Source of the DNA: Schmidtea polychroa
Taxonomy: Eukaryota
Direction of reading: 5' to 3'
NCBI GenBank assembly: GCA_044892525.1
Contig: CM097885.1
Location: 21,268,001 to 21,332,000 of the forward strand
DNA: 64,000 nt
The notes under the pieces were generated by a model. That model did no database searches, was not told the origin of the DNA, and saw only the letters and a program-made list of their open reading frames with translations. Below, in pieces: positions 2,830 to 40,876 of this stretch. Numbering within the stretch: the first letter of the stretch is position 1; each line of letters starts with the position of its first letter. The position numbers and the translations under genes are program-made.

Positions 2830-4219
2830 GTCTTACCTAACTATCCATGAGATATCAGCGTGTGGCTAATTTGATTCTATGTAAAGCTATATTTCAGGTT
2901 GAGCGCGATTAGACCGGTTGGAATACATGTATCTGATTATGTATTTGCTAGCGGATGCAAAAATTTGTGGGTGTGAATTTCCAATCGCATGCGTTCGACT
3001 AGTATTATGACCGGATGGTCAATAGTACCAAACATTATCAAAAATCATGATAAGATTGACTCTTACGGTGTTCACATCGCCTAAAAAAATTCGATTCAAC
3101 CACGGGTAATAATTTGTTAAAAGTACAACTTTAACTATTAGAAACTCGTTTTTCCTGGCGAGGTGAGTTTAGTCGTACTGAGATGTGAAAACTCTGCCGT
3201 TTCTCCGGCTCTGATTGATCCTCAGGATGAGTCTAAAGAGGCAAAACTATTTTAGTTTGAATTTCTCAAGTTCGTTGTGACGTGATTTATCAGAAAACGA
3301 TTTTTAGTCTAAATAGCACTGTTTGCCGTATTTACAATTTTTATCGTTATGTGATGACGAGGAATCTTACTGATAAAGTTCGCGAATCCTTGTACCGGAA
3401 TTTCTGCGAGAACGAACTGACGGTAAACGCGATTTTCGACGATCAGAAATGACGACCTGCGAGATTTATGTTCTTGGAATGACACGAGACGAACGATGAT
3501 TCGGCCACCCTAATCATTGCGAAAAACCCACGAGTAACGTTTTCGAAAAATTCATATTCATTTTAGTCCAAAATAATTTTATTTGATCGACTCAAGTCCC
3601 TTTCTCGCTCCTGTGGCGACAGATCAGTGAGGAAACCCCCACAATGATTTTTGGGCGACTAATAATGATTTTGGGTCGCTATTTATACCATTTTTGTGTT
3701 TATGAGAATTAAATTAATATATTTTATAAGTGTACTCAAATGTTATTATTGTAAATTGTGTGATTATAAGAAGTATGATTAGTTATTGTAACAATTGCTA
3801 AAAAATTAATATAAAATTATTATTCATTATTACTGATTATAAGGCATATATTTTTTTCTTAATTACAATTGTTAGAAATTAAATTTTAAAATATGTTTTT
3901 TGGATTACAATTGTTGAAAATTACTTATGTTTTCTCTTGATTATAATTGAATTATTTTCCAGTGGCATTTACAATTTTTTTCGTTGTATCAATTTTAAAC
4001 CATATGCTTTTTTAGACTTATATTTTTTAATTAGTAATAATTAATTAATTCCCAATATATATTTTTATATTTGAATGTACATATACATTAATAAAAACAT
4101 AACCCAAAATAAAATATACATCAAAACATAAAATAAATAAGATACAACGATAAAGTATTAAGCCAATAATCAAGGATAATTGCAATAATTTAAATTAAGT
4201 AAATTATTACACATAATTG

Positions 4220-6237
4220 TCAATATAAATGTTTTGAATTGTTTGAAGGATCTGGCTCATCTGGCTGATTTGATTGTTTAGGCTCCACATATATGTTTAC
4301 TCTAAATTTGTTGCTGCCCGTTCTATAATAGTGGGTTAGCTCAAATTCTTTAATTTTTCTTCCTCTGTCATCCAACACTCCTCCTAGGGCCGATAAAGTA
4401 ATGTCCTCATTACCTTTATCGCTGAGGACCAATTCTATTTCACAGCCGTTTATGTACATTGTTGCCCTCTGAAATCCTTTTTTCAATGCCAATTTCAACA
4501 CATCACCATCAATAATTCGTCTACCGAAGTGTTGGTGTATTTCCTTTTCCGAAATAGTGGATCTTCCGTCTTTAATGATGAAATTTGGCTCTGGTCCTAG
4601 TTCGTCATCTACCTGCATTGCTTCGTTTGATGAGAAATATTCTTCATCCGAGTCCAAATCACATCGTGGATCTGCATAGTTATAACTACTTGATGCCTGA
4701 GGTTCTTCCTTGATTGTGATTGATTGTGGTTTTTTGTCCTCCTTGACGAATATGATATCATCATCGCTGTCCATTAGTTCATCTTCAAAGGTACGTCTGC
4801 TTCCGTCTTTATTGAATTTTAATTCTCTTTGTGAGGGTTCGATATATATATCTTCTTTAAATTCCTCTGGCTTATCGCTGTTTTCTTCTATTGGACTGAG
4901 TTGATGGCCATTATTTTCCTTTTGGAATGCTGTCATGTCCCACTTTATGACTTCTTCCCATTGCTTTTCGACTATGAGGTAAATGACTTTTACGATTAAT
5001 GTTGTATCTTCTGCTAAGAATGGTTCGGGCTTTTTGAGGATGTTGTTGATTGCTTTGTCTTTCTTCCATTTTGGGTGTGCTGCGATTACTTTATATGCGA
5101 GATTTGATAATTTGATTCTGTGTGGTGCTACATTTTTTACAAATGAACACATGAACACATCTTCAGCTAACTCTCTGATTCCCATGACATTGTACAGATC
5201 TAATGTCAGCGTCTTGAGTTTCTTTATTATTTCGTATCCCACAATGATTTTTCCTAGTAGCAGCTTCTGTATATCGATTAGTGCTTGATATTCATCTTCA
5301 TTTCCTCTTATCGAATCTCTGTCTGCTCTTGTCTTTTCTGGGTAATAGTGTTGGATTTTGGTGCGTGGAGTCACCTTTTTATTGTACACAATTTCTCCTC
5401 TAAAATTTCTAATGTATATCTCGACTGGTCTAAGATTGTTGTTGATGTCACATACCTCTTTGGCATCGACGAACATGATTGCTCTTTGTCTTTCGGGGAT
5501 TGACAACTGCTGATGTGTGAATGACATTCGTTTTGAGATGAAATCTTGATGTATTACGATTTCTGACTGTATCATATCTAATTCTCTGAAAGGATTGGGT
5601 ATAGTTGGAACATATAGAATTTCTATCGCCATCACACAGGGTAAGTTGTTCATTTGAATGACCAAATTGTTGAAATCGTTTGGTACGCTTCGATTAGTTT
5701 TCATTTTCTTGATCACCACCGTGCAGTTGCTCGTTGTTATGATTGGAATTCGTTGTTGACATAATGAGACCTCTGTTCTGATCATGTGGAACAGCAGTCT
5801 ATGTGGGACTTTTCTTCCTTCACTTGCTGCTATGTCTGCATTTTCGAACGTATCATAGGTGCCTATTATATCTCTCAGCTTTATTCTTCGGGCTTCATTA
5901 AATTTGAGCAAGTGCATTTCTCTTTCTTCGATTTCGCACTTCATTTCGTTAGATATGCAGACCTGGTTAGGGAAACCTCTGATGGTGATTGGTGAGCCGT
6001 CTGAGGTGATTTTATTTTGTAGATTTTTGTAGAAGCTGTGGTACAGTTTTTGAATGGAGAGCTGTATTGTTGGACTGGACGTTGCATAGGGTTGAATTGT
6101 TTGGGATTGATTCTGATATTGTTGGATTGCATTTTCCTAAAAAGACAATATACATATACATATTTACAGCGCATTTGAGGCTTTACCTTATATGCTTCAA
6201 TATAAATATTAATATATATACTTTTATTATATATCAT
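4220..6237 (-). CDS. ISG20/REXO4-like DEDD-fold protein with degenerate active site, acidic linker and novel C-terminal domain; probably two exons (6237-6187, 6136-4220; ~655 aa)
   Basis: 574-aa ORF with FVDAKEV...GEIVYNKKVTP...LLLGKIIVGYEI...IRELA...KLSNLA...AEDT, colinear with the REXO4/ISG20 pattern. The frame is open back to a ttttag acceptor at 6137. An AAG|GTAAAG donor at 6186 gives a 50-nt phase-0 intron. Confidence 0.7.
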
Positions 6238-6245
6238 TGACCAAT

Positions 6246-6959
6246 TTACATAATTTTTAAAATTTTTAAAGTTATTATACAAGTGTGGACAGTATATTGT
6301 CCAGGGATATATTTGTCCAAGTGAAAATGCCCTGGTGCTTCTTTGACCAGTCGGTGCCGATACCGCTGCCTTTTCCACTTGTACTTTTTATAAACTTGTA
6401 CACTAGTGACAATTGCTAAAATCGCGAATGATAATACACTTGTGGCTATTACGTAAAAGGGCCATTGTGATTTATTTGCTTTCTTTTGAAAAACTTGTAA
6501 TTCATTCCAGTTATTTATAATTATCGGTTTTCCTATCATACTGTCTTGGATTTTTCATTATTAATTTTTTATATATTTGTCTAACCGCTTTAAATGTCGT
6601 TTTCCTATATATATTCGTGGATATTGAATCTACAGTAGTTATGCTGGTTGTTGATATCTTTTTCCCTATTGGTTTTTTTATTCTAGGTCTGATTATTGTA
6701 GTAGTTTATTGTAATATACCGCTGCCTTTTCCACTTGTACTTTTTATAAACTTGTACACTAGTGACAATTGCTAAAATCGCGAATGATAATACACTTGTG
6801 GCTATTACGTAAAAGGGCCATTGTGATTTATTTGCTTTCTTTTGAAAAACTTGTAATTCATTCCAGTTATTTATAATTATCGGTTTTCCTATCATACTGT
6901 CTTGGATTTTTCATTATTAATTTTTTATATATTTGTCTAACCGCTTTAAATGTCGTTTT

Positions 6960-7026
<67 letters not shown>

Positions 7027-7460
7027 GTGGATATTGAATCTACAGTAGTTATGCTGGTTGTTGATATCTTTTTCCCTATTGGTTTTTTTATTCTAGGTCT
7101 GATTATTGTAGTAGTTTTTATTCTTTTGCACCTTATCTGTGATGTGTCAACTAGTGTATTCCATTGTGCACAAAGTGTGTAATTAGTGTTAGGCTGTAGA
7201 TTTATGAATTCAACATTATCTCCTCTTTCAAATTCATTAGTCGATCTATTCTCAATTTTTTTTATAAGTTTGGGTATATTGTCCCTAGTTTCTAGATATA
7301 AGTCTCTTATTGGTGATTTATTTAGGTTATATACTTTAATCTTATACGGTGAAATGTTGATTAAAATATCTTCAGCCATGTATTCTACTGAGTGTATGTT
7401 CTCAGTTTCTACTTCAGTTGATCTACACAACCCTATAATTATTAGAAATGTCACTGCCAT
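6246..7460 (-). pseudogene. Type I membrane protein: signal peptide, fibronectin type III-like domain, Ser/Thr stalk, TM helix, basic tail (frameshifted, partly duplicated)
   Basis: MAVTFLIIIGLCRS signal-like start; FINLQPNTNYTLCAQ FN3 signature; STTSITTVDSIST stalk. WPFYVIATSVLSFAILAIVTSVQVY-KKYKWKRQR lies in an adjacent frame (6683..6895 and 6246..6539). Confidence 0.65.
6361..7116. repeat. Near-perfect ~350-bp tandem duplication; second copy has an expanded (TA)n
   Basis: 6361-6707 matches 6717-7116 (both start taccgctgccttttcc). The short TA run at ~6606 is expanded to ~60 bp at 6963-7023. Confidence 0.95.
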
Positions 7461-7534
7461 TATCAGTGCTTTTTGTGATCGTAATCCATATTTGTGAGGT
7501 GGTTTTTCTACTCACTCTGTTATCATTTTTATAT

Positions 7535-7855
7535 CTATGTCATTATCCTGATTTTTTGGAACTTCTTGCTCATGTTATTTGCAATATCTCTTAAAGGCTC
7601 TGCTGCCTTTCTGTCATCTGAATTTTCGGCTATTTCAGATTTTCGAGGCCTTCCTCTACCTCGTCTCATCGTCTCTGCATCCTGCATATTTGCTTGTTTC
7701 GAGATTTTTTCTATTGTCTCATGTAAGTTATCATATTTAGTATCGATAGGTTTAAAGATTTCATCGCTAACTGTTGGTGATTTCATTGGCCCTCCTGAAG
7801 AAGCATCCCACAACCTAAATAATTTATCATAGTCATTTTCGTCGTTTATACTCAT
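7535..7855 (-). CDS. Small AT-hook protein (106 aa)
   Basis: RRGRGRPRK AT-hook; ATG in a ccaccATG context directly abutting the structured motif. Confidence 0.6.
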   Translation of the reverse strand: MSINDENDYDKLFRLWDASSGGPMKSPTVSDEIFKPIDTKYDNLHETIEKISKQANMQDAETMRRGRGRPRKSEIAENSDDRKAAEPLRDIANNMSKKFQKIRIMT

Positions 7856-8057
7856 GGTGGGTTACTGATGATCAAATGATTAAGTGCTGTTACCAGCGTA
7901 ACCCAAAATACAACGTTAGATTCCGCTTGGTACCCGTTGAGTAATCAACGTTGGTACTGTACCAAGGGGTTGAGTACCCGCGAAAAGTGAGCGCATCGAG
8001 GCACTATAATCGTCGAGCACTCTATGGGTTCACGGACTACCGTTAGGTCCCTTATCA
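7853..8057 (+). ncRNA. Conserved structured motif, copy A
   Basis: Stems TGGGTTAC/GTAACCCA and GCTG-ttac-CAGC; core 7926-7966 CTTGGTAC-C-CGTTGA-gtaa-TCAACG-TTGGTACT-GTACCAAG; then GTGAGC/GTTCAC and GGACT/GGTCC. Confidence 0.65.
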
Positions 8058-8236
8058 AAATTGTTTTCCCAACCTTATGCACAAACTCTCGTTTCTCAGG
8101 CAATCATAAAATTTATCAGACATTATTTTAACGCTACAAAATATGTATTATTTTAACAACAAGCAAAAGAAATATCATTTTAGTACTACCAGGTATATAA
8201 AGCACACTACAGAAATACATAATACGGAATAAAAGT

Positions 8237-8665
8237 TCAACTTGGCCGGTTGGTGGGGCCGGTTAGTCCCGTCGTAGACATTTGCGATGAACCCGCTTGC
8301 CTTTCGTACTCGGCCAGTCTGGCCTTCTTTAATTTTTCACGGATGTTTCGCCCCAGCCGCTTCCTTTTGGGCTTATCTTTCGCGGCCGGAGGGTAAATTG
8401 CTGCCAACTCCACGGTCAACGGCCGGATTTGACTTATTGTGGCTCCATGAACCGCTTGTTCATTGCGTTCGGTTTCTAACTCGCGGAGTTGGAGGACCTG
8501 CGCCAGCTTCTTTTTCATATCCTGGGGACTAAACCAGGTGCTTTCTAGTTCCCGGCACCGTCCCTTGAGTCTGTCCACTCGGACTCGGAGATCCTCGGCC
8601 TGTTTTTGTGCTTCTTCCCTGTCCTTCCGTAGGTTCTCCAATAGTTTGAACACTAAAAGAAACAT
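8237..8665 (-). CDS. Coiled-coil protein with LESTWFSP motif and basic tail (type 1); likely terminal exon starting at 8652
   Basis: Heptad-rich LENLRKDREEAQKQAEDLRVRVDRLKGRCRELESTWFSPQDM; KPKRKRLG tail; tttcttttag acceptor in the same phase as the paralogue at 18267. Confidence 0.65.
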   Translation of the reverse strand: MFLLVFKLLENLRKDREEAQKQAEDLRVRVDRLKGRCRELESTWFSPQDMKKKLAQVLQLRELETERNEQAVHGATISQIRPLTVELAAIYPPAAKDKPKRKRLGRNIREKLKKARLAEYERQAGSSQMSTTGLTGPTNRPS

Positions 8666-9049
8666 TCTTAGATTATGTTATTACATCATGATATTCGCTT
8701 GATAAGATCGATACTGGTTATAAAGACATTTTATCATTATTAAAGACCAACCCATTTTTACGATAATTTATTAAAGAAGAAACTCATTCAAAGTAAAGTT
8801 CATTATCAAATCAAATCTTATTAATTCACTACAGAGGAGATTTGTTCAGAGTAGAGTTCATGTCTATCGCGAGTTAGAATTGAGGACGAGTTAGGCCGGG
8901 TACTTTTTCAATAATGACTAAGGAGATATGGACAACTATATATAACTGAATTATATACGACAAATAACCACATTACTAATAATAACTCAGTGATATATGA
9001 CTACTGATATTAATAGTAACAACAATATTAATGATACTAGTAATGGTAC

Positions 9050-9080
<31 letters not shown>

Positions 9081-9199
9081 GTGATAATAACCATGATATT
9101 ATAATGACCTTATAATTATTATCTATTTGTAATTTATGGCTAAAACTTTTATGCCAAGGGCAAACTATTATAGTTATTTGTATTTTGTATATTTACCGC

Positions 9200-9850
9200 T
9201 AATAGTTAATCATAACCTTTATAATTTATATTTATACCTGGATGGGGATTATTGTATTAATCTTGTAGTTTACATTTATAAGTATTTCATATATAAGTAA
9301 TTACAACTTATAATTTTATCTTCCGCAAGTTACGATTTGATGGTTCATGATGGATAAAAGTGCGTTTTATACTTCCTGATCTTTGATTTTTTCAGTTTTA
9401 TGGCTTTATATTTTACGATTTATAACGTTATTTTCATAATTTATAACTTTGTATTTGGCCAGTTATAACTCTACATTCATGATTTATAAGTTCATAACTT
9501 TCTATTTTATCATTTATGACTTTACATTTACGATTTATAAGTTTATAACTTTATATTTTGCCATTTACAACTTTACATTTGCGATTTATAAGTTTATATT
9601 TTAGGATTTGTAACTTTATATTTTCTAATTTCTAATTTTAGATTTTGTAATTTATAACTCTATATTTTATGACTCATAACTTTATAGTTTATGATTTATA
9701 ACTTTATATTTTATCATTTACAACTTTATACTTCATGGTTTAGAACTTTATATTTTAGGGTTTATAACTTTAAATTTGATAATTTATGATTTTATATTTT
9801 AAGATTTATAACTTTAGATTTTCCAACTTATAACTTTATATTTTATGATT
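9200..9850. repeat. Degenerate 22-bp minisatellite, consensus ATAACTTTATATTTTATGATTT
   Basis: Eight consecutive 22-bp units counted at ~9677-9850; more degenerate units continue upstream. Confidence 0.85.
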
Positions 9851-10490
9851 TCGATTTTTTGCAACTTTTATGAATTATCCAACACAGGTTCCCGGATTTT
9901 TCAGGTTTATTTCGTAACTAACTGCGAGTTCCACGTATATACAGGTTATATATTGTTAGCTATGAGTATATTCCGACACTCAAATTTTATATATCATTAT
10001 TTCCGATCCATAACTTACAATCGAAATTTACCCATTCATAGTTATATTTTCGGGATCGATGTACTTCGTGTCTAAAATTTTAACCTTATTCGCAACTTAT
10101 CTTTCATAATTGGCAGGGAAAATTCTAGTCGAGTGCTTATACATTTCTAAATATTTTAAGTAGGGGTTTAGGTTAATCGATTAATAGTTTAATTTTTTAG
10201 AATCGTAATATCTACTTTTATACTAAAGGAATTCAAAGACCTATTAAGTTCTACTTATACATATGCCGAATATTTTTGTCCTTACTATTACTCTGATTAC
10301 TATAAATTACTGTTACGAAAACCTAATTCGGCATATATCTAAGCATAACTGGTCAACCATCTACATTACTGTGATTTGCATAATTGTGTCAATTTAGGTA
10401 TGAGTTATACTCAATTTATCGACCTTAGGGTATTTTTCGTTGTATCGATTTTAAATGTTGAATTTAAATGTATGTTACGCAAAAGGTCGG

Positions 10491-10665
10491 GAAGAATATT
10501 GCTTCCATGGCCCCACTGTGACCACTTCCACAAACCTTAGTGTTGTGTGCTGAGTCAACCATTTACGGTTGACCTTAAATAAATACAAAGAGTCAGGCGG
10601 AGGGTTTCCTCGACCTAACTCCATGGCAGGACCATGAAGTAGTTTGACCTCCGGCTGACCCGAAC
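10491..10665 (+). ncRNA. Highly diverged relative of the structured motif (copy F)
   Basis: GGAAG/CTTCC and GTCAACC/GGTTGAC hairpins, AATACAA linker, then GTCAG-CGGAGG/CCTCCG-CTGAC enclosing C-CATGG-cagga-CCATG-AAGTA (cf. copy I). Confidence 0.4.
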
Positions 10666-12519
10666 AAAAAGAGCCGTATAATATCGATTAATATAATATA
10701 GATAATGCATGTGGGCATGTCCTATGAAATTTTTCCAAATCGAATGCAGGACTGAACAACGACGCAGGAATATCCATACGCCGTTGAACCTTCGTACATC
10801 GCTTAAAAAGTTAATCTAAGGAAAGTCAAAATATAAAATCGTTAAAAAAAATTTTTAGCATAGATGAGTTAATAATAATAATACACAAATGATAATACAC
10901 CAAAAAAAATGACACAATACTACTTCTATTGATATCCTGTTGACAAAAGGAAATTTTTGGCATAAAATAATGGTTAATTCTGACTGAAACGTGTCAGTAT
11001 ATATACCTATTTTGTACACGTGTATGTATTGATGCATTAAAACAAACTCGAATTCTTTTTCCAGAATTTTCTATTTTGCGATTTTGATATTTTTAATGGC
11101 AATTTTTGTGCCATAATTTTTGTTTTTATTTTTAAATTTTTATTTTTTAATTATTTTTCGTTAATTTGACGTCCATGATGGATTTGGAACGGTTCCAGAA
11201 CATTCTATTTTACTTTTAATTTTTATTCTAACTGGTGTTTTATGAATTTCTTTTTAAGATTTATTATTTTTAATACTAATTTAGTTATTTTCTCTAACTT
11301 TTATTGTTCTAGCTGGCTTTTGTGATGGTCATCGCATTTTAATGGAATGTTCTGGGTTTTTCTGGAATTTTTTCGGTTTTTATCGTCTTTTAAGTTATTC
11401 GAGTCTGTTTTATGTTTATCTGTGTTTATTTGGTTATTTTCGAGTTCTATTTTGCATAACCTCTTGCTTTTGGTATAATTTTATTTAATTTCTGTGTTTA
11501 GGTTTTGTTGTTTTTTCCTTTAATTATTATTGTTTATTTGGTGTAGTTTTTAATATTTAACTATACTTTTTGCGTGCTATGTACTTACACATTTCAGTCA
11601 CAATTAGAAATTTGGGTCTAGAAGTCAGTTCTAGCCCAACACTCAATTCTACTGATGTGTTAGAAGATGGGAGAATCCTAAAAAATTTTAAAATTAAAAT
11701 ATTATACAATAGGGGCAGATAGATATAGAATAAATATACATATTCAGAAATAAGTTAATGAAAATTGATTCGAATACAAGATAACTATGATGATGACAAT
11801 TTGGTGATCTATCGACAATTATGACTATATTGATTAGATTATTTTATTTTGATACATCGATTGTTTCTATTTTTATGGTGATGTGAATTTTTAAATAGCA
11901 ATCAATTTTGAACTTAATTACAGATTATATTGATTATTTTAAGAATTTAATGACATTTTATTGAAAAATATTGTCGACAACACACAAAAATAGATCTCTT
12001 GAAAGCAAATTAATTAATTTATAATTTTATCTTGTTATTTTACTTACAATTATTATTATTATTTCAATGGAAAATGGTGAAATTATTATTTATTATTATT
12101 AATATTATTATTATTATTATTTATTGTTATTATTATTATTATTATTATTATTTATTATTATTATTACTATTATTATTTTTAAGTGCACTGTGGCACAATA
12201 TTTACTTTTTCAACCATCTGGTTGATTATGTTTGTTTTATTTTTGAACTAAGTGCATTTTGTTTATTGCACTGAGTGCATTTTTATTTGTTTTATTTTAT
12301 TTTGCACTAAGTGCATTTTTGTTTGAAAATTATGTTGCAGTGGCAAATTAAGAAAGAAAAAAATAATATATTTCAATAAAAATAATAAATTTATAAATTG
12401 TGGTTAATATTTTCATATATAATAAATATTACCTATCCCGATTATTCGAACTTTTTGTCGTGTCCGTTCTAGTTTAATTACTAATAAGGATTTACCTTTT
12501 TAGTCTAGTACTACGGTTA

Positions 12520-13255
12520 GATTTTTGGGCGACTAATAATGATTTTGGGTCGCTATTTATACCATTTTTGTGTTTATGAGAATTAAATTAATATATTTTA
12601 TAAGTGTACTCAAATGTTATTATTGTAAATTGTGTGATTATAAGAAGTATGATTAGTTATTGTAACAATTGCTAAAAAATTAATATAAAATTATTATTCA
12701 TTATTACTGATTATAAGGCATATATTTTTTTCTTAATTACAATTGTTAGAAATTAAATTTTAAAATATGTTTTTCTTTTGGATTACAATTGTTGAAAATT
12801 ACTTATGTTTTCTCTTGATTATAATTGAATTATTTTCCAGTGGCATTTACAATTTTTTTCGTTGTATCAATTTTAAACCATATGCTTTTTTAGACTTATA
12901 TTTTTTAATTAGTAATAATTAATTAATTCCCAATATATATTTTTATATTTGAATGTACATATACATTAATAAAAACATAACCCAAAATAAAATATACATC
13001 AAAACATAAAATAAATAAGATACAACGATAAAGTATTAAGTCAATAATCAAGGATAATTGCAATAATTTAAATTAAGTAAATTATTACACATAATTGTCA
13101 ATATAAATGTTTTGAATTGTTTGAAGGATCTGGCTCATCTGGCTGATTTGATTGTTTAGGCTCCACATATATGTTTACTCTAAATTTGTTGCTGCCCGTT
13201 CTATAATAGTGGGTCAGCTCAAATTCTTTAATTTTTCTTCCTCTATCATCCGACC
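12520..13255 (-). repeat. Near-identical copy of 3646-4377 (exonuclease 3' end plus LTR-like AT-rich region and TATA/hairpin)
   Basis: Base-by-base match over ~730 bp with only a few substitutions and one small indel. Confidence 0.95.
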
Positions 13256-13769
13256 TTCTGGCAAGTGGTCAGCTGAACCTCAGCTTCGCGGAATGCATTA
13301 AAAATTCATAAAGCAAAATCAGATTTAAATATCGAAAATCATATACATTATAAAAATTCGGTTAATTCATAAAAGGTTTTAAATTTAAAATTTAAATTAA
13401 TGAAATGGCAAGCAAGGAAAACACATCTTTCAAAATATTTAATTTACTAAAAACTTTCATTTAATACACCCGTCATATTTAAACATTTACTTTACTATTT
13501 TATTTTTATTTTACAATATTTAAACAAAGAACGAGGATCTTCTATTCCACGTATTAATATAAACAAAATTTTACTCATTCTTAACAAGTAGTCTTCTTGG
13601 TTTCTAATTTATTTATGATTTTTATACTATTTCTTAGTGTTTTCTCTTTTGATTTTTGATTATCTCAATTTCTTTTCAGCCCAACACCAATATTAAATAA
13701 TCAATAAGTCAAATTAAGCGATCAGAACACCAATATAGTCATTATAATTGTTGATTTTCCTAAATTATT

Positions 13770-15366: not shown

Positions 15367-17317
15367 CAGACCTGGCCAACTCAAATCACTTTGCGGGCCA
15401 ATTTTTTTATCCAAAAATTTCAGCAAGCTATGTATTATATGAAAAAACAATTTTTATTGAAACATTTGTTTGAATTATTTCAGTACATAGATTTATTTGA
15501 ACCATTCCAAGAAAAACATTTATTTTTATATTGGTGGGTTACCAATGATCAAACATTTTACCTTTTCGTGCTGTTTCCAGCGTAACCAAGAATACAACCT
15601 TGTTTTACTGTATCAAATGGGTGAGTGCTCGCAAAAAGTGATTAGGAACCTGCTTCTACTCAATGCTACACTGCAAATTAATTATTTCCACCTGTAAAGA
15701 TTCTGGAACAGTGAAAACGTCAACTTGAAATGATAAAGAAATTATCTGAAACGTTTTGTCATATTTTGTAAGTTGTGAGAAACGACAAGTAAATTCAGCT
15801 GAAAGTTTTCTAATTTCATCAGCGTACTTTGCAAAATTAATAGTTTGACTGCTATTAAATTCTTTTAATAACGGAAAATGGTGAAGATTGTTATTTCTAA
15901 GTTGGGACTCAAATAAAATTAGCTTGGTTTGGAATGCTTTGATATAATTACAAGCATCAATAATTAAACTATCTTGCCCCTGTAACTCCTTTTTAGCTGG
16001 TTAATTTTTTCTACTAAGAAACACAGGTCCAACAACCATATTTCGTCATTTAAATTTGAAACTGGATTTCTCCAGCCATAAAATTTTCTATTTCCACCCG
16101 TAATTCAAAAAGTCTTTTTAAACATGTTCCGCGACTCAACCATCTAACTTTGGTTAAAATAGACAATATCGCCGTATTCCGAACTTAATTCGTCAAGGTA
16201 AGCTTTGAACTTGCGATGCTGAAGCGCATATGAACGAATATAGTTAACTGTTTTTATTACCACATCCATGACATGGTTCGTGGACAATGCCTGGGCACAT
16301 AAATTTTGCTGATGTATCAAACATTGTATTACACATATTTCACTGAGTTTAACAAATGTAGCTTCAAGTTCATTCAACTTTACAGTTCCTTTATTTTTAC
16401 CAATCATAGCAGGCACACCATCCGTTGTTAGTCCAGAAAGCTTCTCTAAATGTAAAGAATTCCAGGATAAACATTTTTTTCTAGCGTGAAGAACATTCTC
16501 TCCCATAGTGGTGTCTTTCAAATTTAAAAGATTTAACATTTCTTGTGTCACTCAGAAAGAATCGTTAACTCCACGAATAAATACAGCAAGTATCTGAAAT
16601 ATATGTACTTTCGTAGAAAGTTAGAGAATATGCTTTGAATTATCGAATTCGCTCTCGTAAAGTCACCACTATTTCATCTGAAATATCATTAATGTGACGA
16701 CAAATAGTTTGACGCGACCAACTTATGCTTGAAATCATTTTATGTTTATCTGGCATAACATCTTCTATGACAGCTGCCAAACATTCTTTTACAAATTCTC
16801 CGTCCGAAAATGTTTTCATGTTCTTAGCGATTAACATTGCGACAGAGTATCTTGCTTTAACAATATTAAAAGGTAGTTGTAATGAAGAACTAAACATTTT
16901 CTGCTGAGATTTTAATTCGGATTTTAACTCGGCTAACTTAATTTTTCTCAATTCATTATTAGATTTCACATACACGTCATGTTTCGTTTCATGATGACCT
17001 TTAACATTGTATTCCTTAAAAACAGCTATTGTATCTCGGCAAATCAAACACGTTAATTTTGAGTTCTGCATTATAAAGAAGTAATTTTCTTCCCAATGAT
17101 CGCTGTATTTTCTGTTTTCTTCTGAAACTTCTTTTTTTGGAATTCATTCAGGCCAAATATAATTAAAATTATGTATAATTATTCAAAATAAGTGCATTTC
17201 TTTAACATTTCATTACATAAAACAAAAATATTTACAATAATTTTATTACGTCTAAAGATATGCAATCAAATAAAAACTAATGAATTGTGGTATGTAGAAT
17301 CGGCTTGGCCACGCCTG
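15367..17317 (-). mobile_element. hAT Buster/SPIN-type transposon (GTF2IRD2-like transposase relic ~15655-17147)
   Basis: 13-bp imperfect TIRs CAGACCTGGCCAA / CAGGCGTGGCCAA. Perfect 8-bp TSD GTCTAAAC (15359-15366, 17318-17325; central TA typical of Buster). Motifs CLICRDTIAVFKEYNV, FSDGEFVKEC, TTDGVPAMIG, CLIHQQNLC. Confidence 0.92.
15531..15645 (+). ncRNA. Partial, internally deleted copy C of the structured motif, inside the hAT
   Basis: TTGGTGGGTTAC..ATGATCAAA..CGTGCTGTTTCCAGCGTAACCAAGAATACAA..TACTGTATCAAATGGGTGAGTGCTCGCAAAAAGTGA matches copies A and B. Confidence 0.7.
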
Positions 17318-18854: not shown

Positions 18855-19528
18855 TCACCCGGTAGTGGACTGGACTGCGGTGAGCAGGGTTCCCTTTCTC
18901 CCCGTATCTGGGACAGCAAATAAGGTGGCTTTCATGACAGCGATTTCGTCCCGACGTTTCTTGTAGCGCTCGGCGCGAGTATGGCGTTTACGCTTCCGGA
19001 AGGTTGACGGAACGGGACCGATAGTGGAAGTGATCGGAACGGTCAGTGACGTATTGGCCTTGGCTGGGGTCGACGGCAATACGCTGGTGCCCACGAAGAT
19101 GACATCAGATTTTGTTGGAGAAGACCCCTAAGGTCCATGGTTACGGCAGATCGACGTAAACTGAACATTTGTTTCGTCGGCGCGGTGATGTACTGAGAAA
19201 ATGTTTCACTTGTCGACGATCGAAAATTCGTTGATTCGGCTCTTCAACTCCGACTCCGAGTAAATGCGATGGTGGGCCTCCAACTAGGCCTTGATGGTGA
19301 GGCGCTGACACCGGCTTTCTTCAAGCAAGCTGTCTCGACAGTGCTCCAAACGTAGGATTTTCTTATTGTCTTCCTTCATGAGTGGTGGTGTAAACCACGT
19401 ACCTTCGAGCGTGTCGATTCGCTTCTTTAGAACCCCAATGTTATCGTTTAGCATTCGAATAGTTGCGCTTTTGTCGGCACGCGAAAGACACGGTTTCGGC
19501 CAGATTCTGGGAGATTTGGTTCTGACAT
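18855..19528 (-). pseudogene. Coiled-coil TWF protein, type 2 paralogue (stops/frameshift)
   Basis: Manual translation RIDTLEGTWFTPPLMKEDNKKILRLEHCRDSLLEE...IYSESELKSRI aligns with 28108..28530 and ends in basic RKRKRHTRAERYKKRR. Confidence 0.7.
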
Positions 19529-21846
19529 GTACTAGAAATTGGAAAATGAGTTATTCGGTGACTCAATAGAAAACAGATAAGAATATGAGCGATTGCATAT
19601 CTATTCGTAAATTAAGAAGTCTTGTTAATTTGGATCTACTTAACTTCTCCCCTAAACATTCTACACCATGGTAGAATACTAATCAATTTTTACACATTAA
19701 CTTACCATACTTAAGACAACTTTTCAAACCGTTGGGTCGAGATTTGATCGATAAACAGAGTTTAATTTCACATTTTATTATAAGTCGCTAGCCCAAATGA
19801 AAATAAATTCAAAATGAAGTTCCAACACACGTAATAACTTCAATCAGACGTTATTAATATGAATTATCTATTAATATAAATATGAATCCCCGAAAACTTA
19901 AGTTGAATGATCTTGTAATTAACCCAAAAATTCAATTTGAATAATAGTGCATTTTTATTTCCAGTTACTAAACTGAATAGCTCTTCCTTTAATCAAATAA
20001 ATATTCTGACTCGATTCGCGTGTTAATTCAGGTTGCGGTTTGACTCAAAATTGGCCTAATTAATTTATAGATAATTATTCATAAAATTGTATAGTACGTT
20101 TTATCCATGTATCTGATAGATCCATCATGTTCTAAACAAATCATTTCCGAGGAGTTTACTACTACATCTAATAAATTCAAATGGCATCATATTAATGTGA
20201 ATAAATAAATCTATACGAAGAGAAAAGAGAACGGGACGAAATAATTGTTAATATTTTTAATAGATAAAAATTTGTATTACAGATTCGTAAATATCATAAC
20301 CAATATAAATGAACCTACAAACTAAAAATATAACATAATCATAAAAAATCAAAATTTACATTTCTCCTGGTTCGGTACGAATTAAAATCGAGTGAATAGT
20401 CCGGTAGATTGAAGCTAGGTTGAAAAAATTAACATTGATGAAAATCAGTTAAGTCGATTCTTTATATACTAAATTTCATCCAATCAGGATCCAGTTATTG
20501 TGTAAAATTATATTTTTATATTTTTTATTCTTTTTAATGTTTTTCTTCATGTTATTTATTTTTTTTGTTTTGAAATTTATTTAATGATTTCGTTTTTCTT
20601 ATTTTACTTTCTTTTGTTGGTCATTCTACTTATGATATTATATTTTATTCTCCTTATTTTTTTAATTATCCTTTTTTATTAATTATTTTTTTTTGTTGTT
20701 TTATTATTATTATTATTTTGCTCTTGGTATTTTAATTCCGTTATCCTTTAACTATCTTGTTTTGATTATTGGTTATTGTTATGTATTTTGCTTAATTAAT
20801 GATTATTTGATGTATATTTTTGTTTTTAATGATCTTGCTTATTATTTTATTTTATTTATTTCTTTTTCCTTATTCTTTATTTTTCTTTACTTTAACTGAT
20901 TTTCCCCAAGTTATCACTATAGTTTTTATTTTTAATTACGGTAAAATCAACCATCGGGTCTTCCTGGTTTTAGCCCAACATAGGCAATTATATTATATTT
21001 ATGATGGGTTGATGTTGGAAGTGTTGTTTCCTTACAATAAAAATTTAGAAAATACAGAAAAAATATAGAAGAAATAAATAAGTGCTATAAGAGCGATAAC
21101 ATAGTTCCCTATTGTCATATTTGAATGTTATTTCTTTGAAGTATTTAAAGTAAAACCCTATTAATGTCTTAATATAATTTTCCCATTTGAGTCCTCACAA
21201 TCTAATCCATATGATTTTGTGAATCAAAACGTTTAATAAAATCATTTTTTATTCTTTCAAATACTTATTTTAAATTGAAAAATTTTATTTTATATTATTT
21301 TTATTAACTTATATTCACACAAAACTTGTAACTGATCAATGTCTGTTATATATAATTCATCCTTTAAAGTAAATGTAAATGGTTGATCGAAAGGAAAGGT
21401 TACTTTTAATTTGATATAGTGTTTCAGATCACCTTTTGTATATTTAAGTTTTGTTATCTTAATTGTATCTTGTTCATTCTTGATACTTATTCTTGAATAT
21501 CGAAATCTTTTTGATATATTGAAATCATCGAACGATACATAAAATGTAAATAATAACATAAAACATAGAAAATATTTACCAGCATATAATAGGGAATCTG
21601 TACTATAAGGATTATTTATTTCACATTCATCGTTTTTATTGTTATTTACAATTTTTAATATTTTGAAGTTGCTTCCTTCTTTATGTATTCAATTTTATCT
21701 ATACTATGGATAGAGATTTTGCACGAATGTGATATCTAACTGACGGAAGTCTTGAGTCATAGGCAACCTCGAGTTACTACAAATACTATGCATACTAAAA
21801 ATGTGATGAGGAAACATCAAAAGAAATTGATAACATTTAACAAACC

Positions 21847-21877
<31 letters not shown>

Positions 21878-21924
21878 TCAAAGTAAAAACAAACAAATCT
21901 AATTAAACGCATTAATGTTCATCG

Positions 21925-22560
21925 TATTTTGGCTAAGAGACCAACCATACAGATTATTTATATCAATATATAATAATTCTGGATCATCAGAAGTAGCAAC
22001 TTAATGTTTGTTAATATATGTAAACACACTCCGCATTCTATCGTCATAGAAATTATAAATTTTCATGTCCTGTAAAAGTTCTATGGATTCTGTTAATGTC
22101 ATCAGTGTTGAGGCCATTGACATACCCGGAATACCATAGAAATTTAGAGGTTCAAGGCCATTATATGCAATGGCCTTAGCACGGAATTGCTGAAAATAAT
22201 TTGGAAAGAGGAATACGTCTAATTTTAGGTAAATTAACATATAATCACGCAAATTAATACAGTTTTTCTGAGTCCAAATCATCTTCCGTAACACCAGACC
22301 AAATAGTAGCAACTCATAATTAGTCTCACGAACATCCAAAGAAGTTGCAAAATTTTAAGGAAAAACACCTTTAGAATTTCTTATTGACCCACCAAAAACA
22401 GGTGAAGTTAAAGGAAGGTCTGAATGAGTTTTTATAGCTTTGGCTGAAGAACAATTAACAAATTACATGCTGTCAATAAAACGAACAGCCAATTTGTTAA
22501 TATGCGCATTCATCGATATAAACTTTTCAGTTCTAGGGATGATATCCAATTCCCGAGATG
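21925..22560 (-). pseudogene. Protein-primed family B DNA polymerase fragment (Polinton/adintovirus)
   Basis: IPRTEKFISM..VRFIDSM; YLKLDVFL...FR...NGLEPLNFYGIPG...IELLQD; LLYIDINNLYGWSLSQ (PolB motif A region). Confidence 0.85.
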
Positions 22561-28107: not shown

Positions 28108-28530
28108 CTAATGGACGACTGAAACAGGTGTCGGAACATTGATGTCGATTAATGGAAAAGGAGCTGGTTTTCGGTTCCTCGGGCTTGAGGTTCGAGCGAA
28201 AGGAGCTGCCATCCACGAGGAACACCCAATATACGAGGTCGGAACTAGAAATCCTGGTGTTAGGTTATGTACGGGAATGACCGTATCTTCACTTACGGCT
28301 TTATACCTGGAGACACGTGTCGACAGTTCCTTGGCCGTATATACTTGGAACACGGCCTGAGATTGCTTCTGTACCAGAGCTTGTGGCGCCCGGTCTTCGG
28401 TTATGATACTGTCTCGACTGTGCTCAAGGTGAAATAATTGTTTGATTTTCTCCATCATCTGGAGAGGGTTAAACCACGTCCCCTCCAGGTGGTCGATCTT
28501 TACCCGGGGTAGACTGTTCTCCTCTCTCAA
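28108..28530 (-). pseudogene. Coiled-coil TWF protein, type 2 paralogue (truncated)
   Basis: KIDHLEGTWFNPLQM..LEHSRDSII..VYTAKELSTRV. Confidence 0.7.
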
Positions 28531-35248: not shown

Positions 35249-36624
35249 GGATCAAGGTCAAAATCCCCCCCCCGTAAAAATATTAATAAAATATACAAAA
35301 AAAATAAAAAAACATAAAAAAAGTTAAAAAATATATATTCGTAAAAATGAACAAAATAAAATAAACATAACAATAAAATGAACATTAAAATTAAAATATA
35401 CATAAAATATACAAATTATATACACTTAATAGCAAAATAAATCAACAACAAAACTAAAAAAACATTAAAAGAAAAAGCAAAACCAAAAACCTTTTAATTT
35501 TTGTCATGAATTTTCCCCAATAAAAGACATATTTGAGCATATGAATCATCTTTGTATAAATCCAAAAAAATAAATTCTGTCAACATTTGTTTTCTTCCTT
35601 GTTCGGTTAACCCTTTAGCTGTCTTAATACATAGCTTAAGTTTATTGTTTGCACTCTCTATGTGCTGCGTGTGAACACCATTTTCGGGTGAAACAAAGTG
35701 ATATTTATGACATACAGTCCTATGCTCATAATCATTAATGGTACCGAGAGAGTTGTATGTAGCAAATTCATCGGTGGCTATTATTGAACCTTGCCTAACA
35801 ACTCTTGAAATTATAGGAATTATTGTACCAGCCTTTCTATCAGGCACTATCTCAAAATAACACCTTGAAGGGCTGAAGGATGTATCAGCAATTCCTAAGC
35901 ACCAGACTTGATCTCGTGGAGCTCTTCCTCTGTGACTCTTAACAAGCATGGTTAAGCATGGTTTCATCAATTTGAACGGTGATGCCAGGGCCGCCAAGTA
36001 AAATTGAATTCTCCAAAAAGTGTGATTCGATTGTTTGTAGAAGTATTTTTCTTATTTTACTGAGAGTGTTTTTACTGATCGTTACGTTTTCCAAAATTTT
36101 GTTTTGAGAATCTCCCTTCGACCAGTATAAAATAACCTTTAAAATCTTTTTTATGCAGATTGATATGCCATTTAACCAGCTACCATTTCTTATCGACGTA
36201 GTGGTTTGATATCTGGAACATGTATAGTTCATACATCTCCAGTTATAACTGTCTTGGGAATCTTTCGATGGTTTTAGCACCATATATTCGTCACAATACC
36301 CGAACTGCATTGTTCTTGCGATGAATCTCATGTCAAATAGTTTTTGAATTACTTGTAAGTCAGTCATTAAAATAATCTCTTCTAGTTTTGATTCTATGCG
36401 CATTTCAAATAATTTGTTTTAAATTTTAATTAATTGTTAGTTAATTCTGATTTTAAATGGCATATATACATTTAAACCGTTAATTTATTGGTTATTAATT
36501 TATTATAATTTTATTAATTTATTATTCATTTATTATTTAATTGTTATTTATTTAATATTAATAATATTTATTTAAACAAGGTCAAAATCCCCCCCCCCGC
36601 CTGGTGGGATTTTGACCTTGATCC
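35249..36624 (-). mobile_element. Merlin (IS1595/ISXO2-like) DNA transposon
   Basis: TIRs GGATCAAGGTCAAAATCCC.CC; perfect 8-bp TSD TAAAATTT (35241-48, 36625-32). Confidence 0.95.
35494..36403 (-). pseudogene. Merlin/ISXO2 DDE transposase with a single +1 frameshift
   Basis: LGGPGITVQIDETMLNHAC / KSHRGR, GSIIATDEFATY, HRTVCHKYHFVSPENGVHTQHIES; one extra T at ~35941 separates the halves. Confidence 0.93.
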
Positions 36625-36981: not shown

Positions 36982-39654
36982 TTCAGAATCTGACTTCTCT
37001 ACCTTGAGCTTCAGAGAAAAAGAAGAAAATACATCGTAAGATTTAATTATAAAATAATTTAGAATATAAACTTTGTTTAGATTTATAGATATTTCTCACA
37101 CACAATTTCAATAATTTACAAATATAAGAAGTATGCAGAAATTCAAAAAAATAAATGTGTTTGGTGATTACTTTATTTATTTATAATTATAAAGATATAT
37201 AACTTACATTTTAACGAAATAATTCCAGATAAATGCATAAAGTATCATAAATTCCTAAAAAAACACCTGAAATTTAATTATCAATGTTATATTATAAATG
37301 ATGACTAACAGTAATATTTAAAAACTTGAATAATAATCTCATAATTATATAAAATCAAAATTCAAGTCTTAAAAGTTACCTAAAATTAAAATTAAAAAAT
37401 GAAATTAAGTTAACATTGTCATATAAATGGTGACTCACCTCAACTGGTGTGCACATCAACGTATATTATAGACAATTTTAACTTTCGGAATTAGGTGTAG
37501 AGGTTAAGCACATACCAATCAAAATCATGCATTGATATTGCATCTTTATTGCATATGAGTAATATTAAAACTGTAAATTTCATTACATCATTAAATAATA
37601 ACTTCTATTACAGTATTTTAAACTATATTGAATCACTAATTATTGCAAAATAATAAATTATTTCAGTTAATGGTTACAAAATTAATAAAAATATTACAAT
37701 AAATCAAACCAACATAACGAAACCCTTCAATAAATTACAATAATGTTATAAAGTATTCATTAAGTTGCAATAAAGTGGGAAATTATTTCGGTAAATGGCA
37801 GCATGAAACTTTTCATTTATGAAACCTTTCATTAAATTACAACAAAGTATTAACATTTTTCATCAAATTGCAACAAAGTAATAACATATTTTGGAAAGAT
37901 TTCAACAGTTGTAAAATATTTAAACAATTTGTAACAAGATTATAAAAATATTGCAGCAAAGTAAATAACATACCGATGACTAGTTAACTATATGTGTTAG
38001 CACTGTATGCAAAACTGTTCATATTTTTATTATAGTATTTTTTAGTTGGTTTATGTGAGAATTTTATATTAGGGTATTAAATATTTATATCAATTCGAAT
38101 TTCTGTTTGTCACGGTAAATATTATTTAATAAAATTTCTCTCGGTCTTATAAACTTAAAAATAAACTATTATTGAAAATAATAAATCTTTTTGATAAATA
38201 TATTATTTTTTAAGTTTGTTCATTTCTCAAATATGTTTCTCAATATTCTATAAATTGATAATATGTTAATGCACTACTAAAACCTACTAATTTCTGCAGT
38301 TAATTCATAATTAATTTGAATAACCTGTTAATTTAGAATTCTAAAATTTAATAAAACTTTGATTTTTATAGCTTAAATATTATTTTAAAAATCCTAGTTT
38401 TAAAAAAAAATTTGTAAGTTTTATTTTAATCTATTTTAAAGAATTAAGATTTCTAGTTATAATAAATGAAATTTTTATAATTTTTGAAAATAATGAATGG
38501 TAAATTAGAATAATTGTCAACTCAAACAATATATAGATAGAATTTAAAACTCTACAAAATGACATCATTATTTATTCATACTCAAAACACCTAAACCAAT
38601 GCCTTTTTCAGGCAAATTTTACATACACATTTAAAAAATATAAATTATTAATCTATACTTAAGAAAACCTATTCTCATATTAAAACTAAACATTTATCAA
38701 AATCCTGAGAAATTCGATCGTTATCTCTATCTATTGGTGATATGAACTACCCTATAGAAATTTGTCAACAATGAAGGGTAAAATTTTAAGGAATTATATG
38801 TCAATTTTGAGTAAATAAAAAATACATTTTGAGCTTAAATCATATATATATATATATATATATGTTTTGCACTGAAAATATGCGTTTTATTAGGGGTAGT
38901 AAATAATTTTAAAATAAAAATTTAATTATCACATGTAAATCCCCCATACTATTTTTATAATTATTTAAACGATAAAAATCAAGACAAGAGAGGACAAGGC
39001 AAAGTTTATGCATTTAGTATTGTCAGGCCTAATGAGCAGTGACCAAATATCTGTGCCTGAAAGACACGGTGGATATTTGTTCGCGTCCATAAGGGTCGTC
39101 TGTGCCTCCCCAAGTAGGGTCAGAAGAACCTGTTCATCATTAGTTCTCCGTACGGAACAATATACCTAGCATGTCTGGGTAGTCAACTACCATCATATTC
39201 GAAACGTATAAAAAATACATTTCAAAATACATGCGTCATTGGCACTATAACCAAGTTAATTAATTCAATGACAAGAAGTTACAGAGGCCTCGCACTAGTT
39301 GGTTTACAACCGCCCACCACGACGATCAGCTTGTATTATTAATTAAGGGATAAAGAGGACCCACCCAACCCTATTATATTTAATTTACAAAATAATATCC
39401 AATGGTTTCTCACTCTTCTGGATTTTTCGGTAATCTATCATTATTTTCTCAAAATGTAGTAATCTCTCCATCGGGCCATTTGATCATGATTTCATGGAAT
39501 AAATCTTGCATAATTGGACGTATTTCTTTGTTTGGTGACATCATGACTTGTGTTTGTTACTTAGGGCTGTGTCATTTTTACATTTTAAATACGTTAGGGG
39601 TGATTTAGATATTCACTTGACTCTTTCCTAAGCACCTCCATGACTATTGCACTT

Positions 39655-39750: not shown

Positions 39751-40199
39751 CAATTGTATTTTCTTTTTTCTTACGCCATTAGTCATTTTCTATTTCTACT
39801 TTCCACTTTTCTATTTTATTCATCTATGGTCCTCATTTCTGGATGTTTTCTATTGTTCCTTTTCAAAATTTTGTGCAGGGATGCGCCCATATTCTCTTTC
39901 GCAATTTTCGCCATTTAACTTATCTTTTATTTCTAAATCGGCGGTTACCCTTTACTCGGTTCTACTCTGGAACCAAAAAAATTATCTTTACCCGGTTTCG
40001 CTTTTAAAACCAAAAAAATATTATTCCAACCTTGTGGAACTTTCTTTACCTTTTTTTATTTATTTATTTTCCTCCTTTGTGTTACTTGTTTACTTTCATT
40101 TATCCTTTATTTTCATTATCTCATCTAATTCATTTTATTCTCCTGTTTTCTCTGATTGGCTAGCACTTCTCACAACTCAGTCTTAACATGACCGGCTGG

Positions 40200-40876
40200 C
40201 ACTTTTCAACACCACCATTTTCTTCACCATTAAAATCAATCACTTGTCCATTTTCATCAACAATTTTAAAATTAATATTACATATATTTTTTCTACACAA
40301 GGGTAAATAATTTGGAGGATTCATTCTTTCGATTATTTTGTATAAAATGTTTGTTTGTTTTCCATTATGATATGATCCCGTTATACAATTACACTCTATA
40401 TTTATTGAATTTGTATTTGTTATTTTTATAATATTTTTGGATTTTATAATTGCAATATTTGGAATGACACTATATTCTTTGGATTCAAAACTCAAAATAG
40501 TATGAAAGAAACTAGAATTATCAAAACTAAGTGTAATATTTTTTATTGTCAAGATACATTTTGATGTTTGTACATCTGCTTTTATTTCTACATTTCCACT
40601 TGTTTCTTTTAAAATTATTTTATTTAAATCTATTACTTCATATGACCCTGGTTCAATTGTTATAATTTTTTTTTGTCATATTTCATTAGTTGTAGTAAAA
40701 TTATTATTAATATTTATATTGAAAACAATGTTGTAACAACTAAACCATAATAATCCTAATTCATAATTTAAATTCTGATTTAAGTTTATGGAGTCTTCAA
40801 AATTTATTATAAAATCAGATTCGGTAGAATTAATTAATAGGGTTCTTGAATATTTATCAGACATTATATTTTCCAT
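40200..40876 (-). pseudogene. Polinton minor capsid (penton) protein
   Basis: SDFIINFEDSINLN..YELGL; ITIEPGSYEV; SINIECNCITGSYHNGKQTNILY; IVDENGQVIDFNGE; frameshifted. Confidence 0.85.

Follow-up and report, generated by a model that had tools for sequence, protein, structure and literature searches.

Analysis of a 64,000-nucleotide stretch of the genome of the planarian Schmidtea polychroa (GenBank assembly GCA_044892525.1, contig CM097885.1, positions 21,268,001 to 21,332,000; hereafter the window) indicates that the interval 3646..11641, earlier read from its sequence as one unclassified multi-gene mobile element or virus, is very probably a chance nest of two minus-strand long terminal repeat (LTR) retroelements, with a Burro-type solo LTR lying within a copy of a 13.4-kb gypsy element that has suffered a deletion. 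The five-module cassette (coiled coil, structured RNA, AT-hook, FN3-transmembrane (TM) and pseudo-exonuclease) is refuted as a single unit: its modules map to two Ty3/gypsy families that have reverse transcriptase (RT), envelope (Env), LTRs, target-site duplications (TSDs) and primer-binding sites (PBSs). Both parents belong to already known planarian Ty3/gypsy lineages, namely Burro and the GAG-ENV-POL element Smed_errantivirus_3. The FN3-TM tail, the pseudo-DEDDh second open reading frame (ORF2), the LTR-encoded ORFs and the covarying LTR RNA are real parts of these families and seem to be undescribed. Four accessory frames are under purifying selection, and the LTR RNA shows covariation.

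Two nested retroelements

The sequence-only reading had listed, in one orientation, a coiled coil, a structured RNA, an AT-hook, an FN3-TM frame and a pseudo-exonuclease. All of these are present on the minus strand, as a coiled coil (8237-8652), an AT-hook frame (7535-7861), an FN3/TM frame (6276-7520) and a 638-codon ORF (4223-6136), together with a structured RNA at 7858-8022. Each of the five domain calls was right, and so was the assignment of the region to the accessory or LTR part of a retroelement, for which Burro had been named. The first sign of more than one unit was the recurrence of 3646-4376 at 12520-13254 with 98.9% identity. In a search of the genome (781 Mb in 1012 contigs) with positions 6400-13300, there were 41 non-self matches with E=0, of which 38 began at most 3 bases from 11641 and none extended beyond 7855. 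This terminal repeat and the bounding of the matches at 11641 and 7855 imply that the modules are not one unit. Furthermore, the segment 7855-11641 starts with TG, ends with CA and carries the same 4 bases on both flanks, and on the far side of this inserted LTR the ORF1 sequence of the outer element resumes.

The junctions between the modules tell the same story. The AT-hook/FN3 junction is spanned in the window only (1 of 40 scored places, from 278 candidates); the other scored places match one side of it, the two sides being about 6.0 kb apart in paired cases. The junction between the LTR end and the AT-hook piece is likewise confined to the window (1/40 scored, from 2407 candidates), and the proposed five-module order does not survive as a unit. 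A genome-wide check of module linkage, suggested by the sequence-only reading itself, found the modules unlinked in the other copies scored, the outcome which that reading had named as telling against a single element. The AT-hook and FN3-TM sequences stand; as genes in their own right they do not, being pieces of one polyprotein that lie 6 kb apart in relatives. The apparent ATG of the AT-hook frame consists of the terminal CA of the LTR and the target site, and it is because the CA and the 4-bp target copy combine in this way that the piece looks like a gene. No RT was seen in the cassette because a 6.0-kb deletion took Env and Pol; the window copy itself cannot encode RT or Env. The boundaries in the window, the TSDs, the family structures, this deletion and the two unique junctions are all direct observations.

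We propose that the nest arose when a Burro-type element inserted, with a 4-bp target duplication, into the outer gypsy copy, and that recombination between its LTRs then likely left the solo LTR. Both parent families would replicate as tRNA-primed LTR retrotransposons, the outer one from a tRNA-Phe PBS.

Table 1. Features of the nest and other listed stretches in the window (positions are those of the window)
Feature	Position	Strand	Basis
Remains of the 5' LTR of the outer element (13.4-kb gypsy), without 3' end and PBS; include the last ~32 ORF2 codons	12446..13255	-	98.9% identity to 3646-4376
Unrelated interspersed repeat in place of leader and gag	11658..12445	.	this part alone matches many separate genomic places
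Short ORF1 remnant upstream of the insertion, with one 4-bp TSD copy (11642-11645)	11642..11657	-	adjoins the 7854 side in family sequence without the insertion
Burro-type solo LTR, 3787 bp, TG...CA	7855..11641	-	starts of E=0 matches, TSD, paired copies around gag-env-pol
AT-rich tandem array inside the LTR, periods 7/15/22/51 bp	9400..9851	.	common to other LTR copies
LTR-encoded coiled-coil exon with Lys/Arg-rich stretch	8237..8652	-	acceptor-like site, dN/dS
Covarying structured element, LTR 3' end	7858..8022	-	43 pairs, compensatory changes
Second 4-bp TSD copy	7851..7854	.	matches 11642-11645
Outer ORF1 fragment, aa 638-751; AT-hook-like motif 7640-7666; ends at the 6.0-kb deletion junction	7515..7854	-	86-89% amino acid identity
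Outer ORF1 C-terminal tail, aa 2759-3051, FN3-TM	6276..7520	-	family alignment, model, dN/dS
ORF2, ISG20/REX4-like DEDDh fold, extending into the 3' LTR; not in frame at its 5' end	4223..6136	-	91% amino acid identity to family ORF2
3' LTR remnant of the outer element; TG start at 4377, cut at 3646	3646..4377	-	matches family LTR
DNA-transposon fragments and 664-codon frame	387-2308, 15656-17143, 35497-36418, 41550-43541, 54061-54546, 57252-58824, 61179-61520

The outer envelope-bearing gypsy family

A Pfam scan of the cassette frames of the window gave nothing significant, and the family was recovered through the long window ORF, for which 93 matches were scored among 1296 candidates in the genome. 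The relatives are 13.4-kb units with LTRs of ~1.0-1.1 kb, 4-bp TSDs in 6/6 loci and, again in 6/6 loci, a PBS motif that matches the 3' end of a genomic tRNA-Phe. Their ORF1 is open over 3051 codons and encodes, in a single frame, Gag-AT-hook-Bcl2-Env-protease (PR)-RT-RNase H (RH)-integrase (IN)-FN3-TM. It matches PF24664 with E 8.5e-90 over amino acids (aa) 912-1562, which places a gB/class III-type Env between Gag and Pol; protease, RT, RNase H and integrase are matched as well, zf-CCHC weakly, and Bcl-2 below the cutoff (E 1e-4). Among the 16 Pfam matches of the unit there was no MATH, BIR or ankyrin. A 722-codon ORF2 follows ORF1, and about 32 of its codons extend into the 3' LTR. All that the window retains of these frames is the AT-hook piece (ORF1 aa 638-751), the FN3-TM tail (ORF1 aa 2759-3051) and ORF2. 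Its LTR remnant at 12446-13255 aligns to family LTR positions 2-271 and 696-862; the two window LTR remnants differ by 5 substitutions and one 4-nt indel, and the repeat at 11658..12445 has no match to the outer family unit.

The exonuclease ends that had been reported at 13.2, 13.8-14.8, 24.7 and 56.6 kb were all recovered, the one at 24.7 kb weakly (independent E-value (iE) 0.0015). Since ORF2 has its final ~32 codons within the LTR, those at 13.2, 24.7 and 56.6 kb are simply outer-family LTR starts; the one at 13.8-14.8 kb is an older ORF2-LTR remnant.

Three further observations were made on this family. 1) It includes a 7.3-kb non-autonomous subfamily (L071-L072, G000:C3:26.912-26.919 Mb; L075-L076, C2:128.247-128.255 Mb), in which both copies share the same Env-Pol deletion, have TSDs and LTRs that are 99.3% and 97.6% identical, and retain Gag-Bcl2, the TM tail and ORF2. 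2) Modules appear to have been swapped in several copies (L083-L084, L087-L088, L077), in which ORF1 is 91-99% and ORF2 59-63% identical to the reference copy. 3) A long array of 255-bp period at G000:C1:34.22-34.26 Mb bears the tRNA-Phe 3' motif in each unit and is possibly a tRNA gene array.

That such deletion derivatives exist, with near-identical LTRs and TSDs, and that the window ORF2 is still open over 638 codons, might suggest that the composite in the window is itself a non-autonomous mobile unit that is copied whole. The deletion ends differ, however: aa ~903 to ~2915 in the two 7.3-kb copies, and aa ~751 to ~2759 in the window, where alone they are spanned (1/40 scored). The LTR/AT-hook junction is equally single (1/40 scored), and the PBS and the LTR 3' ends are lost, so that we regard a unit of this kind as very improbable. 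Little more can be said for a domesticated chimeric host transcript, driven by the solo LTR through the AT-hook, FN3 and ORF2 remnants. The in-frame ATG supplied to the AT-hook piece by the LTR CA and target site, and the largely open ORF2, would fit such a transcript, but the pieces contain frameshifts, a microsatellite expansion and a tandem duplication, and nothing shows locus-specific selection; its probability is accordingly small, and comparable to that of a composite unit. An accidental nest remains the reading that we prefer over both.

The polyprotein tail

In the outer family the polyprotein continues after the integrase with a signal-like segment, a domain of about 90 aa, a Thr-rich stalk, a TM segment and a basic tail. 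The hydrophobic peak of the TM lies at aa 2992, there are five N-glycosylation sequons, and the signal-like segment was read from the sequence, being below the hydrophobicity threshold used. In the window the FN3-fold domain occupies 7113-7379 and the TM segment ~6390-6455; a (TA)n expansion interrupts this tail, as does a tandem duplication of ~356 bp. The model of the ~90-aa domain has a pLDDT of 77.5 and 7 strands. Its structural matches are mostly FN3 domains (Z 8.2, root mean square deviation (rmsd) 2.9, 78 residues aligned), with a designed Ig protein in first place at 8.5; the Atlas score of 0.87 for fn3 serves as a lead only. No match was found at the sequence level, either by Pfam on the window frames or in a PDB sequence search with the FN3 alignment. 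In 19 comparisons the ratio of nonsynonymous to synonymous substitution rates (dN/dS) for the tail was 0.16-0.43.

The polyprotein is thus predicted, on the strength of the model, to end in an FN3 type-I membrane protein. As the Env segment has its own signal peak (aa 908) and TM peak (aa 1477), the tail would, by analogy, be released by signal peptidase as a second membrane protein. The outer polyprotein would then thread the endoplasmic reticulum twice, yielding cytosolic Gag/Bcl-2-like and Pol parts and two type-I membrane proteins, a class III fusogen and the FN3 tail. For the latter a role as attachment or decoy protein has about even odds in our estimate.

ORF2, a probable pseudo-exonuclease

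ORF2, open over 638 codons in the window, has besides its DEDDh-like fold an acidic linker and a C-terminal domain that enters the 3' LTR. A Pfam scan of ORF2 returned 0 families, and a profile built from six copies matched ISG20 (E 2.4e-4) and ISG20L2 (E 5.8e-4); Atlas gave RNase_T at 0.92, with 176 shared features. DEDD nucleases headed the results of both fold searches (Foldseek E 5e-3; Z 6.8, rmsd 4.9, 84 residues aligned). A full protein scan yielded 62 ORF2 relatives; 15 of the 25 scanned match RNase_T (PF00929), and among 23 aligned relatives the ExoI and ExoIII motifs are retained by 17 and not by 6. ORF2 itself, in the window and in 5 other subfamily copies, has lost 3 of the 5 motif residues (the ExoII acid, the ExoIII His and the second of the acids of ExoI), and the last Asp of the set is also lost in 3/6 copies. 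Against three subfamilies its dN/dS is 0.047-0.07; against three more dS is saturated. Hence, the view of ORF2 as a selected pseudo-nuclease with the DnaQ/RNase T fold is well supported. It may act as a non-catalytic protein that binds RNA ends and shields the RNA of the element from decay or silencing; we would put the chance of this role at slightly under one half.

The ORF2-related proteins (P0005-P0074) form a broad, unnamed RNase_T-like family of 400-600 aa, some of them encoded on 15-17-kb contigs. A pattern search for genomic loci of the distant relatives confirmed 0 of 224 matches.

The inner LTR and its giant parents

Of 14 single loci of the inner repeat, 11 are solo LTRs with a 4-bp TSD (11/11 of the solo copies with both ends); the others are one 5' LTR followed by a PBS-like motif, one 3' LTR and one copy without a matched 3' end. 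Two loci hold pairs of ~5-kb LTRs whose starts are 27.9 and 30.7 kb apart, one full pair being enclosed by a 4-bp TSD, and the total length of this giant element is ~33-36 kb. The PBS-like motif is conserved after 3/3 inner-family 5' LTRs, and an exact-pattern search for a tRNA gene corresponding to it matched only the element itself. Thirteen frames scanned between the paired LTRs include zf-CCHC, PF24664, protease, RT, RNase H, integrase, ankyrin, TRAF/MATH and BIR-RING matches. The PF24664 fusion glycoprotein lies upstream of PR/RT in both giant copies, and MATH/TRAF, BIR and ankyrin are all present in the single giant copy scanned for them. None of the 13 frames matched Pfam Bcl-2 at E 0.05, yet the region aligns with the Bcl-2-Env stretch of the outer family. 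The parents of the inner LTR are Burro-type Ty3/gypsy elements, an assignment that rests on the published description of size, LTRs and domains.

The window LTR lacks ~1.3 kb (near 8905) of the full-length LTRs, including a second ORF. Remnants of such LTRs explain part of the synteny that had been claimed elsewhere in the window. Coiled coil and RNA do recur together at 17.5-18.3 kb (iE 2e-54) and, weakly, at 51.2-51.7 kb (coiled coil iE 0.006, RNA E 2e-10), because both belong to one Burro-type LTR, of which remnants lie at both places. The second coiled coil, at 19.3-19.4 kb, is only weakly paralogous (iE 8e-5). The FN3 fragment reported at 49 kb found no support (17 aa at E 6.4; iE 0.32), and repeated searches gave no match for a coiled-coil-like frame with an RNA at 32.5-33.5 kb.

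LTR-encoded frames and the LTR-terminal RNA

The coiled-coil exon is preceded by an acceptor-like site (pyrimidine tract and AG) whose position is constant across subfamilies; the window exon is 18 codons shorter than its relatives. Its dN/dS is 0.11-0.16 in 11 full-length comparisons at 63-71% identity, and between near-identical copies, which differ by a small number of changes, it is 0.5-1.7, in keeping with decay after insertion. There was no Pfam match, and in a protein-database search with the exon, restricted to proteins of near length, 0/63 candidates passed. Fuller LTRs also carry the upstream 121-codon ORF that is deleted in the window; it ends in an AT-hook-like motif (L057:6467-6829, +) and has a dN/dS of 0.07-0.60 in the rows with unsaturated dS. 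Judged by these codon substitution patterns, both LTR ORFs are under purifying selection. Four contig runs (three guessed to be RNA, one unknown) on 2.3 kb of full-length LTR yielded no clean GT..AG joint between the two. The coiled-coil exon likely contributes to a spliced nuclear regulatory protein. Two coiled-coil pieces elsewhere in the window, 19287-19448 and 28411-28506 (-), share the motif GTWF.P..M of the LTR exon and probably belong to other LTR families.

The structured element at the LTR end is about 165 nt long and occupies the U5 position, where in 5' LTRs the PBS follows immediately; folding of the single sequence gave z = -2.67. For comparative analysis, 71 near-full matches were reduced to 36 at <90% identity and 32 were aligned, one near-duplicate and three copies without the full terminus being left out. 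All copies stop at the LTR terminus. RNAalifold gave a structure of 43 pairs, with 97.2% of cells paired and compensatory changes in 12 of the 43. None of 500 shuffles reached the real value and slid controls paired 30-43%, controls that are lenient since the structure was drawn from the same alignment as was tested. On a tree built from the unpaired columns, changes on internal branches preserve pairing in 17/19 cases (6 double, 11 single), and over all branches 37/103 changes break it. The terminal helices show no double changes. Within the pairs G-U outnumbers A-C by 83 cells to 14, which fixes the strand of the RNA. No relevant Rfam family was found for the window and three LTR-end loci. 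The element might serve as a cis-acting leader signal in U5, for packaging or for the primer-dependent start of reverse transcription, a proposal we hold to be as open to acceptance as to doubt. A near-invariant 8-nt palindrome in the second hairpin, within 7930-7945 (-), is a candidate dimerisation signal.

A hammerhead ribozyme was considered and rejected at the LTR end, where a CTGATGA stretch occurs on the plus strand: this heptamer is not conserved among the 32 copies, is not followed by GAAA, and lies on the strand opposite to that favoured by the G-U bias. The sequence-only reading had pointed to Penelope-like Terminons; these, or some unknown non-retroviral endogenous virus with a ribozyme, form a further alternative, and the co-oriented coiled-coil, TM and DEDD frames do resemble the Terminon inventory as given in the relevant portion of PMC6431247. 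Besides the failure of the ribozyme, for which Rfam also has no match, this lead founders on the parents, both of which have true TG...CA LTRs, 4-bp TSDs, a PBS and pol genes in the gypsy order PR-RT-RH-IN. Of all the alternatives it is the most remote, and two nested gypsy-type elements account for the interval far better.

Retroviral regulators that are encoded by the element and have response elements in the LTR or RNA are known from HERV-K (Rec/RcRE), HTLV (Rex/RxRE) and MMTV (Rem). The likeness of the inner LTR to these, and to CERV (Cer1; PMC10309623), is one of resemblance only, in that a spliced-looking basic coiled-coil exon lies beside a conserved LTR RNA. No sequence similarity was found, and the inner-LTR structure is at the U5 position, not clearly in U3/R.

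Points that weigh against the interpretation

Several observations count against the reading set out above. At the level of the nest, the outer copy lacks both LTR 3' ends, the PBS and a TSD of its own, and the pairing of 12446-13255 with 3646-4377 rests on their 98.9% identity and layout; the junction searches scored only 40 candidates each, which leaves room for a rare second copy. As to the parts, a Z of about 8 for the FN3 domain is the level that the tool calls a common arrangement, and the dN/dS comparisons share ancestry and are not independent. The AlphaFold model of ORF2 is poor (pLDDT 38), and each of its fold matches is weak when taken singly (Foldseek E 5e-3; Z 5.9-6.8). What is said here of splicing, of processing and of any function is inferred.

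Comparison with known elements

Burro/GYPSM1 is a giant Ty3/gypsy element of Schmidtea mediterranea, with an inventory that includes MATH upstream of BCL-2 (PMC6431247, Burro section). The inner parents agree with it in a length of >30 kb, multi-kb LTRs, a Gag CCHC and a fusion glycoprotein between gag and pol, and further in ankyrin, MATH/TRAF and BIR domains as that section lists them (PMC6431247). They differ in that the giant copy has MATH and BIR in separate frames after pol, unlike the order given there. The outer family shares the Gag-Bcl2-Env-PR-RT-RH-IN frame, its Env region being 30% and its Pol 40% identical to those of the giant copies, but is only 13.4 kb long, has no MATH, BIR or ankyrin match, and has in addition the FN3-TM tail and the DEDDh-like ORF2; it resembles a compact Burro relative and is not classed as Burro.

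In its Env the outer family differs from Smed_errantivirus_3 at ~39/246 positions, or ~84% identity by an eye count against the portion of PMC13524379 that shows it, and its lineage is therefore already catalogued. Smed_errantivirus_3 and _6 are described there as GAG-ENV-POL elements with an Env of the HSV/gB type, and the Env of _6 resembles by eye that of the giant copy (PMC13524379). The six Smed rows in that part of the paper give no LTR or tRNA type. Its main text does not contain 'exonuclease', 'fibronectin' or 'burro', and its supplements were searched for species names only.

A 3' accessory gene of DEDD fold is also found in the gypsy-like bdelloid elements Juno and Vesta; their DEDDy ORF3, and that of Terminons, is RNase D-like with intact catalytic residues, according to the passages of PMC5408684 that treat it. 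In contrast, ORF2 is ISG20/REX4-like DEDDh, has lost 3/5 motif residues and coexists with Env. Its best profile and fold matches, ISG20, ISG20L2 and REX4, are set apart from it by those three residues of ExoI, ExoII and ExoIII.

Neither the FN3 tail nor the pseudo-exonuclease, the LTR ORFs or the LTR RNA was found described in literature searches or in the portions available of PMC6431247, PMC5408684, PMC8532177, PMC13238120, PMC11410931 and PMC13524379; the primary Burro paper (Grohme 2018) and Repbase may cover some of them. The Burro section of PMC6431247 makes no mention of LTR-encoded ORFs, LTR RNA structure, FN3 or an exonuclease.

Other elements in the window

The window, at ~30% GC, is dense with repeat fragments. 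Polinton/adintovirus-like fragments lie at 21293-22354 and 40163-48402 (-), with a PLA2-like domain (PF08398, 46004-46912) and a double jelly-roll capsid (PF21738, 47325-47669), alongside frames which we take to be protease-like and polB-like. The last row of Table 1 lists stretches with DNA-transposon fragments (DUF4371/hAT, Spin-doc zinc finger, ISXO2-like) and a 664-codon frame without a Pfam match. An AT-rich hairpin at 37315-37376 (-) resembles mir-753 (E 8.6e-8, 48.8 bits), under the gathering score of 62.

Implications

The cassette is a nesting accident, and its parts matter more than their arrangement. They would extend features of complex retroviruses, namely a second membrane protein, LTR-encoded regulators, a pseudo-nuclease and a covarying cis-acting RNA, to one invertebrate Ty3/gypsy lineage. 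The piRNA control of such elements has been studied in the planarian model animal, as a part of PMC8532177 describes. The LTR RNA and ORFs recur in very many solo LTRs, with 2737 first-look candidates for one RNA variant alone, and could affect host transcription. In the boldest form of this view, which we consider speculative and rather unlikely, planarian Burro-clade elements would be complex enveloped retroviruses. The compact family would release two membrane proteins from its one polyprotein (a class III fusogen and a captured FN3 protein for attachment or as a decoy) and carry a dead ISG20-like RNA guard, and the LTR of the giant family would encode a Rev/Tat-like regulator that acts on the conserved LTR-terminal RNA. 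If this were true, the genome would hold a pair of regulator and response element in each of hundreds to thousands of LTR copies.

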